NCBI RefSeq assembly: GCF_013167455.1
Contig: NZ_CP038328.1
Origin: Escherichia coli O157:H7
GTDB lineage: Bacteria; Pseudomonadota; Gammaproteobacteria; Enterobacterales; Enterobacteriaceae
Direction: 5' to 3' (one strand)
Length of the DNA: 64,000 nucleotides
The position numbers and the translations under genes were made by a program. The stretch's first letter is position 1. Each line of letters begins with the position of its first letter. Below, in pieces: positions 3,538 through 6,041 of the stretch. The notes under the pieces were generated by a model, which was not told where the DNA came from, searched no databases, and worked only from the letters and a program-made list of their open reading frames with translations.

Positions 3538-4656
3538 ATGCATAACCAGGCTCCAATTCAACGTAGAAAATCAACACGTATTTACGTTGGGAATGTGCCG
3601 ATTGGCGATGGTGCTCCCATCGCCGTACAGTCCATGACCAATACGCGTACGACAGATGTCGAAGCAACGGTCAATCAAATCAAGGCGCTGGAACGCGTTG
3701 GCGCTGATATCGTCCGTGTCTCCGTACCGACGATGGACGCGGCAGAAGCGTTCAAACTCATCAAACAGCAGGTTAACGTGCCGCTGGTGGCTGACATCCA
3801 CTTCGACTATCGCATTGCGCTGAAAGTAGCGGAATACGGCGTCGATTGTCTGCGTATTAACCCTGGCAATATCGGTAATGAAGAGCGTATTCGCATGGTG
3901 GTTGACTGTGCGCGCGATAAAAACATTCCGATCCGTATTGGCGTTAACGCCGGATCGCTGGAAAAAGATCTGCAAGAAAAGTATGGCGAACCGACGCCGC
4001 AGGCGTTGCTGGAATCCGCCATGCGCCATGTTGATCATCTCGATCGCCTGAACTTCGATCAGTTCAAAGTCAGCGTGAAAGCGTCTGACGTCTTCCTCGC
4101 TGTTGAGTCTTATCGTTTGCTGGCAAAACAAATCGATCAGCCGCTGCATCTGGGGATCACCGAAGCGGGTGGCGCGCGCAGCGGGGCAGTAAAATCCGCC
4201 ATTGGTTTAGGTCTGCTGCTGTCTGAAGGCATCGGCGACACGCTGCGCGTATCACTGGCGGCCGATCCGGTCGAAGAGATCAAAGTCGGTTTCGATATTT
4301 TGAAATCGCTTCGTATCCGTTCGCGAGGTATCAACTTCATCGCCTGTCCGACCTGTTCGCGTCAGGAATTTGATGTTATCGGTACAGTTAACGCGCTGGA
4401 GCAACGCCTGGAAGATATCATCACTCCGATGGACGTTTCGATTATCGGCTGCGTGGTGAATGGCCCGGGTGAGGCGCTGGTTTCTACACTCGGCGTCACC
4501 GGCGGCAACAAGAAAAGCGGTCTCTATGAAGATGGCGTGCGCAAAGACCGTCTGGACAACAACGATATGATCGACCAGCTGGAGGCACGCATTCGTGCGA
4601 AAGCCAGTCAGCTGGACGAAGCGCGTCGAATTGACGTTCAGCAGGTTGAAAAATAA
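3538..4656 (+). CDS. ispG: 4-hydroxy-3-methylbut-2-enyl diphosphate synthase (IspG/GcpE)
   Basis: Track ORF 372 aa; recognised GcpE sequence; operon position after rodZ. Confidence 0.96.
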
Positions 4657-4746
4657 TAACGTGATGGGAAGCGCCTCGCTTCCCGTGTATGATTGAACCC
4701 GCATGGCTCCCGAAACATTGAGGGAAGCGTTGAGGGTTCATTTTTA
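4657..4746 (+). ncRNA. sroE: candidate SroE-type 3'UTR-derived sRNA in the ispG-hisS spacer
   Basis: 110-nt spacer after the ispG stop holds a GC hairpin (4666-4684) and a terminator-like stem (4695-4700/4734-4739) plus T-run 4740-4746; recalled that SroE maps between gcpE(ispG) and hisS. Confidence 0.4.
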
Positions 4747-4766
4747 TATTCAGAAAGAGAATAAAC

Positions 4767-6041
4767 GTGGCAAAAAACATTCAAGCCATTCGCGGCATGA
4801 ACGATTACCTGCCTGGCGAAACGGCCATCTGGCAGCGCATTGAAGGCACACTGAAAAACGTGCTCGGCAGCTACGGTTACAGTGAAATCCGCTTGCCGAT
4901 TGTAGAGCAGACCCCGCTATTCAAACGTGCGATTGGTGAAGTCACCGACGTGGTTGAAAAAGAGATGTACACCTTTGAGGATCGCAATGGCGACAGCCTG
5001 ACTCTGCGCCCTGAAGGGACGGCGGGCTGTGTACGCGCCGGCATCGAGCATGGTCTTCTGTACAATCAGGAACAGCGTCTGTGGTATATCGGGCCGATGT
5101 TCCGTCACGAGCGTCCGCAGAAAGGGCGTTATCGTCAGTTCCATCAGTTGGGCTGCGAAGTTTTCGGTCTGCAAGGTCCGGATATCGACGCTGAACTGAT
5201 TATGCTCACCGCCCGCTGGTGGCGCGCGCTGGGTATTTCCGAACACGTAACTCTTGAGCTGAATTCTATCGGTTCGCTGGAAGCACGCGCCAATTACCGC
5301 GATGCGCTGGTGGCATTCCTTGAGCAGCATAAAGAAAAGCTGGACGAAGACTGCAAACGCCGCATGTACACTAACCCGCTGCGCGTGCTGGATTCAAAAA
5401 ATCCGGAAGTGCAGGCGCTTCTCAACGACGCTCCGGCATTAGGTGATTATCTGGACGAGGAATCTCGTGAGCATTTTGCCGGTCTGTGCAAACTGCTTGA
5501 GAGCGCGGGGATCGCTTACACCGTAAACCAGCGTCTGGTGCGTGGTCTGGATTACTACAACCGTACCGTTTTCGAGTGGGTGACTAACAGTCTCGGCTCC
5601 CAGGGCACCGTGTGTGCAGGCGGTCGTTATGACGGTCTTGTGGAACAACTGGGCGGCCGTGCAACACCGGCTGTCGGTTTTGCGATGGGCCTCGAACGTC
5701 TTGTATTGTTAGTACAGGCCGTTAATCCGGAATTTAAAGCCGATCCTGTTGTCGATATATACCTGGTGGCTTCAGGTGCTGATACACAATCTGCGGCTAT
5801 GGCATTAGCTGAGCGTCTGCGTGATGAATTACCGGGCGTGAAATTGATGACCAACCACGGCGGCGGCAACTTTAAGAAACAGTTTGCCCGTGCTGATAAA
5901 TGGGGTGCCCGCGTTGCTGTGGTGCTGGGTGAGTCTGAAGTGGCTAACGGCACAGCAGTAGTGAAGGATTTGCGCTCTGGTGAGCAAACGGCAGTTGCGC
6001 AGGATAGCGTAGCCGCGCATTTGCGCACGTTACTGGGTTAA
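4767..6041 (+). CDS. hisS: histidine--tRNA ligase
   Basis: Track ORF 424 aa with GTG start at 4767; class II aaRS motifs. Confidence 0.96.

Follow-up and report, generated by a model that had tools for sequence, protein, structure and literature searches.

The spacer between ispG and hisS in Escherichia coli raises the question of whether a conserved, well-folding intergenic element is kept for the RNA that it yields or for the signals that it carries for its flanking genes. An earlier note, made from the sequence letters, had proposed that this spacer encodes SroE, a small RNA (sRNA) processed from the 3′ untranslated region (UTR) of ispG, whose structure doubles as the ispG terminator. We examined the locus in a window comprising the whole stretch of 64,000 nucleotides (nt) that was analysed. 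The window is E. coli DNA: positions 4400–5000 are 100% identical to O157:H7 chromosomes, and this stretch is found in 5,425 of 5,426 complete E. coli genomes. The spacer (4657–4766) is 110 nt long, as the note had stated, with ispG ending at position 4656 and the GTG start codon of hisS at 4767.

A search with Rfam models establishes that the element is indeed SroE. The SroE model (RF00371) matches positions 4656–4747 on the + strand with a score of 116.6 bits (gathering score 51, E = 1.8e-28), and the match is full-length, spanning model positions 1–92 of 92. It is the sole above-threshold Rfam match in the whole window, and the reverse strand reaches just 16.1 bits with the same model. The layout is likewise that of the family: the RNA lies between ispG (gcpE) and hisS, and all three share a strand. 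No T-box, His-leader or other cis-regulatory Rfam model matches positions 4560–4860 at E ≤ 10.

Furthermore, positions 4630–4790 (161 nt) are 100% identical to the sroE stretch of E. coli K-12 MG1655, where the ncRNA sroE (b4761) is annotated at 2640595–2640686, also between ispG and hisS. Window position x corresponds to NC_000913.3 position 2645342 − x on the minus strand. In model match, structure, position, strand and sequence there is no difference between the spacer element and sroE; it is the already catalogued E. coli sRNA and adds nothing new to the catalogue. The features of the locus are collected in Table 1.

Table 1. Features of the ispG–hisS region in window coordinates
Feature	Position	Strand	Basis
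ispG coding sequence (372 aa), SroE parent mRNA	3538..4656	+	ORF list, RefSeq annotation
ispG stop codon TAA; second in-frame TAA	4654..4656; 4657..4659	+	Sequence
SroE sRNA, 92 nt, equal to MG1655 b4761	4656..4747	+	Rfam RF00371, annotation, identity
Hairpin 1, 9 bp (UGGGAAGCG / CGCUUCCCG) with 3-nt loop (4674–4676)	4665..4685	+	Rfam consensus structure, minimum free energy (MFE) fold
Putative −35 hexamer TGGGAA (3/6 consensus), overlapping the hairpin-1 5′ strand	4665..4670	+	17-nt spacing, near-invariance
−10 hexamer TATGAT of the hisS promoter, in the single-stranded SroE linker	4688..4693	+	Invariant in 26/26 species
Hairpin 2, outer stem UGAACCC (4694–4700) / GGGUUCA (4734–4740), variable interior	4694..4740	+	Folds
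Primary transcription start G of hisS-yfgM-bamB	4701	+	Two 5′-triphosphate datasets
U5 run adjoining hairpin 2, intrinsic-terminator-like for upstream transcripts	4741..4745	+	Sequence, conserved T-run
Purine-rich Shine–Dalgarno-like stretch AAAGAGAA, ending 5 nt before the hisS GTG	4754..4761	+	Sequence, AGAGAA conservation
hisS coding sequence (424 aa, GTG start)	4767..6041	+	ORF list, RefSeq annotation

Public records do not treat this locus uniformly. The sroE feature is missing from the O157:H7 RefSeq (PGAP) record NZ_AP018488.1 (L002, locus 1757–1868), which matches the window identically, an omission that is an annotation gap and reflects no biological difference. In another study (PMC12306157) sroE carries the label ‘REP’, which appears to be a generic palindrome call. 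We rejected the possibility that it is a REP element, since such elements are dispersed in many copies, whereas a sensitive blastn search of 5,426 E. coli genomes located sroE at a single site in each of 5,425.

The RNA spanning positions 4656–4747 folds into two hairpins with an MFE of −40.1 kcal/mol (z = −4.73). Shuffled versions of the same stretch average −23.7 kcal/mol, and none of 200 folds as well. This bears out the two stable stem-loops noted earlier, and the arrangement of two hairpins followed by a U run is the one that RF00371 describes. Hairpin 2 folds strongly on its own (4690–4750, −22.5 kcal/mol, z = −3.68), and the MFE version of hairpin 1 stretches to 4660–4691. Because the reverse strand of SroE folds equally well (z = −4.91), folding does not give the strand; the + strand is assigned on the basis of the U run, the flanking genes and the asymmetry of the Rfam scores.

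The earlier note had drawn the U-tract at 4740–4746. A tract is present, but it comprises only the five U nucleotides at 4741–4745, which are flanked by A4740 and A4746. The annotated 3′ end of SroE, position 4747, lies past this run and coincides with the end of the Rfam model. A strict consensus scan of positions 4200–5000 called neither a promoter nor a terminator. For the terminator, the internal loops of hairpin 2 and its 10-nt apical loop are the likely reason, as they break the stem and loop rule; the missed call is not due to an absent stem, since hairpin 2 does abut the U run.

The two hairpins had been described as lying just before the Shine–Dalgarno sequence of hisS, a picture that leaves out the hisS promoter and its mapped start, both of which sit inside SroE. 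Specifically, a method called SMRT-Cappable-seq, which captures 5′-triphosphate ends on full-length cDNA of 1–6 kb, assigns the operon b2514-b2513-b2512 (hisS-yfgM-bamB) a reverse-strand transcription start site (TSS) at 2640641 (Yan et al. 2018, PMC6131387). This base, on the minus strand of NC_000913.3, is window position 4701. The independent 5′-triphosphate TSS profiling of Kim 2012 puts a start at U00096.2 position 2638663 and prints ...GTGTATGATTGAACCCG as the end of the sequence before it. This is the same base, given the offset of 1978 between the sroE coordinates of the two genome versions. Read support for the latter call is low (6 reads). Table S2 of Kim 2012 flags the sroE triphosphate TSS as ‘upstream of the sRNA’, which is internally inconsistent, as its coordinate falls 45 nt inside SroE. 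The supplements of Ettwiller 2016 hold no entry for the ispG–hisS region.

Promoter elements are found at the positions expected from this start. G4701 lies 8 nt after TATGAT, which matches the −10 consensus at five of six positions, and TGGGAA, the putative −35 hexamer, is separated from TATGAT by 17 nt. This arrangement falls within the ranges that we used for a sigma-70 promoter, namely hexamers at 16–18 nt and a mapped primary start 6–9 nt after the −10 element. The hisS promoter scores only 6.9 bits in the promoter matrix used, and the strict scan likely missed it because its −35 element is too weak. G4701 is also the first base 3′ of the 5′ strand of hairpin 2, a geometry by which any transcript that begins here lacks one strand of the outer stem.

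Two minor features accompany this start. A further TSS of Kim 2012 (2638974 in U00096.2, window position 4390) lies in the ispG coding sequence, 377 nt upstream of hisS; it is assigned there to hisS, and its transcripts would span the whole SroE region. In addition, a 46-aa open reading frame (4703–4843, + strand) has its AUG only 2 nt after G4701, making it nearly leaderless, and is out of frame with hisS. This reading frame is probably spurious: within our alignment, only the Escherichia and Citrobacter rows retain its ATG. We also rejected it as a His-rich leader peptide, as it is not conserved and its few His codons come after the start of hisS, in another frame.

The position of the start has a marked predicted effect on RNA structure. 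RNA beginning at 4701 has no significant structure (z = −0.66), and the inner hairpin that remains in it stops about 8 nt short of the U run. In the window, the five bases adjoining the U run have a paired probability of 0.96 in upstream-derived RNA versus 0.17 in RNA derived from 4701. The same comparison yields mean values of 0.94 versus 0.24 across 27 SroE-type loci, and of 0.92 versus 0.00 across 14 loci in which the promoter lies within a hairpin loop. At 10 of the 27 SroE-type loci, however, the prediction for +1-derived RNA leaves the stem-proximal bases paired to an appreciable degree, with values up to 0.83. Transcripts from the hisS promoter would thus be expected to escape the terminator because the start at G4701 leaves out its 5′ stem strand, an escape that the folding predicts without uniformity across SroE-type loci.

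The proposal that this structure doubles as the ispG terminator holds only if the terminator is leaky. Two operons in the data of Yan et al. 2018 (PMC6131387), b2515-b2514-b2513 and b2516-b2515-b2514, cross the spacer, and full-length reads from the ispG-proximal and rodZ promoters continue into hisS. Because of these read-through transcripts, hairpin 2 and its U5 run constitute at most a partial terminator. The 3′ end of SroE is not among the dominant Term-seq 3′ ends in the two sorted lists examined from Adams 2021, our sole Term-seq source for this end. As these lists hold about 900–1,200 dominant ends per condition, the absence is weak negative evidence, and termination at the 3′ end of SroE may be weak. 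The same study places dominant 3′ ends inside hisS (2640434 and 2640283 of NC_000913.3, window positions 4908 and 5059) and inside ispG (2641247 and 2641079, window positions 4095 and 4263); the end at 2640434 is scored there as not Rho-dependent.

The claimed origin from a processed ispG 3′ UTR agrees with two published sources. SroE is listed among sRNAs that are processed from longer transcripts (PMC8313858), and Table S2 of Kim 2012 records no triphosphate start at the annotated SroE 5′ end, where a method that captures monophosphate ends saw one. This pattern fits a processed 5′ end. We also considered a promoter of SroE’s own, formed by TTGACG (4631–4636) and AATAAT (4652–4657) with a 15-nt spacer. 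This candidate was rejected because the two hexamers are poorly spaced, species that have the shorter TAACGTG junction do not conserve it, and no triphosphate TSS is reported there.

To place these observations in an evolutionary context, 80 loci ranging from Escherichia to Vibrio were compared, each anchored on the HisS N terminus and hence located independently of the RNA. The order ispG–hisS is retained in all 80 loci, with spacers of 13 to 437 nt. The RF00371 gathering score is reached in 22 of them, all from core Enterobacteriaceae and all in the ispG–hisS spacer. Among 26 aligned SroE-type spacers from this core group, TGTATGAT, which includes TATGAT, is invariant (26/26), and almost no change is seen in TGGGAA, in either strand of hairpin 1 or in the hairpin-2 outer stem. 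The T-run is conserved, and the AGAGAA of the Shine–Dalgarno-like stretch is invariant or nearly invariant. The loop of hairpin 1 and the interior of hairpin 2 are hypervariable, the latter ranging from 7 to 35 nt, with the shortest form in Enterobacter. The fold signal of this interior is weak (mean z about −1.0, with 9 of 26 below −1.5), and some Citrobacter interiors were clipped. Five sampled variants of E. coli and E. albertii differ only inside hairpin 2 (interior or loop), in the loop of hairpin 1 or in the length of the T-run, and variants in the E. coli population spare the promoter elements and stems.

Base pairing is kept in 96.6% of alignment cells overall (94.9% for hairpin 1 and 98.8% for the hairpin-2 outer stem, 26 species). 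Covariation is absent from these 26 spacers, with a score of 0.060 versus 0.050 for shuffled alignments, and 46 of 500 shuffles scoring as high. As the two conserved helices are nearly invariant, this test is uninformative as proof of RNA structure. Missing covariation is expected if the stems double as promoter elements, and so the result fits dual coding.

The position of the start relative to the terminator stem was examined across the 80 loci. In 42 loci the predicted +1 comes no earlier than the 5′ strand: 26 have it at the 3′ edge of that strand, 14 within the 3′ strand and 2 beyond the stem. It is upstream of the 5′ strand in 0 of 80, which argues against a published proposal, taken up below, that the RNA is a T-box-like leader. 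Outside the SroE-type group, a near-consensus promoter, TTGAA[T/C/G]-18-TATAAT, is present some 35 nt ahead of hisS in roughly 30 loci, from genera including Serratia, Rahnella, Yersinia, Pectobacterium, Brenneria, Dickeya, Edwardsiella, Photorhabdus, Xenorhabdus, Proteus, Providencia and others.

Judged from these alignments, terminator and promoter seem to have come together in three forms that are unrelated in sequence. In the core Enterobacteriaceae, the start falls just after the 5′ strand of the stem. In Serratia, Rahnella, Rouxiella and Pectobacterium, the strong TTGAA-18-TATAAT promoter lies within the loop of a long hairpin (UGAACCCGA...UCGGGUUCA), which borders directly on a T-run. 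In Pantoea and Tatumella, TATGAT is enclosed in a different hairpin.

We propose that SroE is a 3′ UTR-derived RNA that overlaps both a leaky ispG terminator and the promoter and start of hisS, a reading to which we assign a probability of roughly 0.6. If this model is correct, transcripts from ispG or from promoters farther upstream would fold hairpin 2 against the U5 run, and a fraction of them would terminate at about position 4747 while the remainder enters hisS. The terminated RNA would be cleaved near the ispG stop codon, leaving SroE protected by hairpin 1 at its 5′ end and by the terminator hairpin at its 3′ end. The same DNA would carry the hisS promoter, wherein the −35 TGGGAA forms part of the 5′ strand of hairpin 1, the −10 TATGAT forms the single-stranded linker and the stretch from the −10 element to the start supplies the 5′ strand of the terminator stem. 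Transcripts that begin at G4701 could not form this stem and would pass the U run, carrying a weakly structured leader of 66 nt to the start codon. Of this model, the identity of the RNA, its fold, the mapped TSS, the transcripts that read through and the geometry across species are observed; how efficiently transcripts terminate, the processing step, the −35 element and the escape from termination are inferred.

The presence of the hisS start within the same 92 bases probably explains much of the sequence conservation of SroE, and we view the RNA as mainly a stable by-product that may also regulate in trans. It is a further step to regard sroE as a dual-coded terminator–promoter module, with a terminator that acts only on upstream-derived transcripts, as a functionally meaningful design. 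We put this forward tentatively, at a little short of even odds; if true, much of the conservation of SroE would mark the promoter rather than RNA function, and sroE would provide both a model case of a conserved sRNA that results mainly from DNA signals lying on top of one another and a defined example of start-site-dependent terminator bypass.

In the literature that we found, the function of SroE is uncharacterized. An early screen for sRNAs yielded it, with a described length of 90 nt, and it was later scored as ‘required’ in transposon (TraDIS) screens of S. Typhi and S. Typhimurium, where it resides upstream of the essential gene hisS (PMC3632133). This score is predicted by our model, because the promoter of an essential gene would lie inside SroE. 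A hisS start at this position offers a simple account of the conservation, of the apparent ‘essentiality’ in transposon screens and of the lack of convincing targets. More generally, a conserved and well-folding intergenic ‘sRNA’ can reflect overlapping promoter and terminator signals of its flanking genes.

The main alternative is that SroE is a trans-acting, Hfq-associated regulatory sRNA whose conserved single-stranded linker GUGUAUGAUUGAA, or else an accessible end, pairs with target mRNAs. Conservation would then reflect a regulatory function of the RNA and not the hisS promoter. Its anatomy is one common to Hfq-binding sRNAs: a hairpin at the 5′ end, then a linker rich in A and U, then a terminator hairpin that carries a U tail. 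RIL-seq on cells starved of nitrogen for 24 h lists it among 26 Hfq-associated sRNAs (PMC12539622), an association which suggests that SroE may be more than a by-product. It is also present in every nutrient condition tested, with no significant change between them (PMC12266141). However, a study that calls SroE uncharacterized tested ten predicted targets, of which nine were unbound and only ligB mRNA gave a gel shift in vitro, a weak one (PMC6172242). Overexpression causes no biofilm, motility or fimbriae phenotype (PMC4606813), the level of SroE changes only −1.75-fold in a Klebsiella hfq mutant (PMC3136514), and an (ARN)x Hfq motif was not found in the RNA (PMC5575007). The comparison of loci points the same way: a −10 hexamer, placed 8 nt before a mapped TSS, falls exactly on the invariant linker, and lineages beyond the core Enterobacteriaceae keep the hisS promoter but not the SroE sequence, such that most of the 80 loci fall below the Rfam threshold. 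On this evidence we consider a primarily trans-acting role unlikely.

A second alternative takes hairpin 1 to be mainly a DNA operator, in which the perfect palindrome GGGAAGC-N3-5-GCTTCCC over the −35 region binds a putative dimeric regulator of hisS and the RNA hairpin is a side effect. The near-invariance of both arms in 26 species, around a freely varying centre, is what such an operator would show, as is the lack of covariation save for one symmetric double change that keeps palindrome and pairing alike. Moreover, TGGGAA seems too poor a −35 element to account alone for such strict conservation. The same pattern is nonetheless given by the joint constraint of a −35 element and an RNA stem that protects the 5′ end of SroE. 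Our search found no report of a regulator or of binding, and other lineages place a hairpin of unrelated sequence after ispG, which argues for a terminator or stabilizer role at the RNA level. We therefore hold an operator to be quite improbable as the main role of hairpin 1.

The remaining proposal, made from the TraDIS requirement (Barquist et al. 2013, PMC3632133), is that SroE is a cis-acting, T-box-like or attenuator-like hisS leader that senses uncharged tRNA-His or histidine through a terminator switch inside the hisS 5′ UTR; it draws on the constant position of SroE upstream of hisS and on the hairpin and U run between the promoter region and the gene, and we give it very little credence, because a start past the 5′ strand leaves no complete terminator in the leader, the part of hairpin 2 that does remain is hypervariable and shrinks to 7 nt in Enterobacter, and the locus has no conserved upstream reading frame rich in His codons.

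Comparison with known systems clarifies what is distinctive about sroE as our model describes it. Like the 3′ UTR-derived sRNAs CpxQ (from cpxP) and SroC (from gltIJKL), which are named alongside SroE in previous studies (PMC8313858, PMC12266141), it resides at the 3′ end of a coding gene, has no reported triphosphate start at its own 5′ end and ends with a hairpin and a U run. Unlike these RNAs, SroE has no validated target or phenotype in the literature that we found, its body holds the promoter and start of a downstream essential gene, and its terminator is read through into that gene.

A closer mechanistic parallel is TSS-dependent terminator read-through, wherein transcripts that share a terminator but differ in their starts show differing read-through, for which structural differences between transcripts have been suggested as the cause (Yan et al. 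2018, PMC6131387). The sroE locus offers such a structural reason, as the downstream start removes one strand of the stem. Differential read-through at sroE is predicted from folding, and the text examined of that paper does not discuss the locus. With T-box leaders and the his-operon attenuator, sroE shares a position upstream of a histidine-related gene and a hairpin with a U run. It differs from them in that the hisS start lies inside the terminator hairpin and in that it lacks a conserved specifier, an antiterminator and a His-rich leader peptide, in line with the result of the Rfam search at 4560–4860.

Several further features were observed among the 80 spacers. Insertions of about 95–125 nt are present in Yersinia thracica (L049), Photorhabdus caribbeanensis (L067) and two Pseudocitrobacter loci (L005 and L009), and we take them to resemble ERIC/IRU repeat elements. 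The Photorhabdus insertion splits the TATAAT −10 element. In Pseudocitrobacter it interrupts the loop of hairpin 1, and this accounts for the failure of the Rfam model to match these two loci. Three Yersinia loci (L040, L043 and L049) carry an extra palindrome of ~60 nt (TTGATGTTGC...GCAACATCAA) between the T-run and the hisS Shine–Dalgarno sequence, within the predicted 5′ UTR. Finally, 14 loci (for example, L036, L037, L042, L046, L047 and L063) from Yersinia, Edwardsiella, Photorhabdus, Dickeya and Hafnia have a T-run, usually CATTTTT or TATTTTT, just after the predicted +1 and about 25–35 nt before hisS, with no upstream strand that pairs beside it. In these genera the T-run may serve the hisS 5′ UTR, perhaps in translation, rather than termination.
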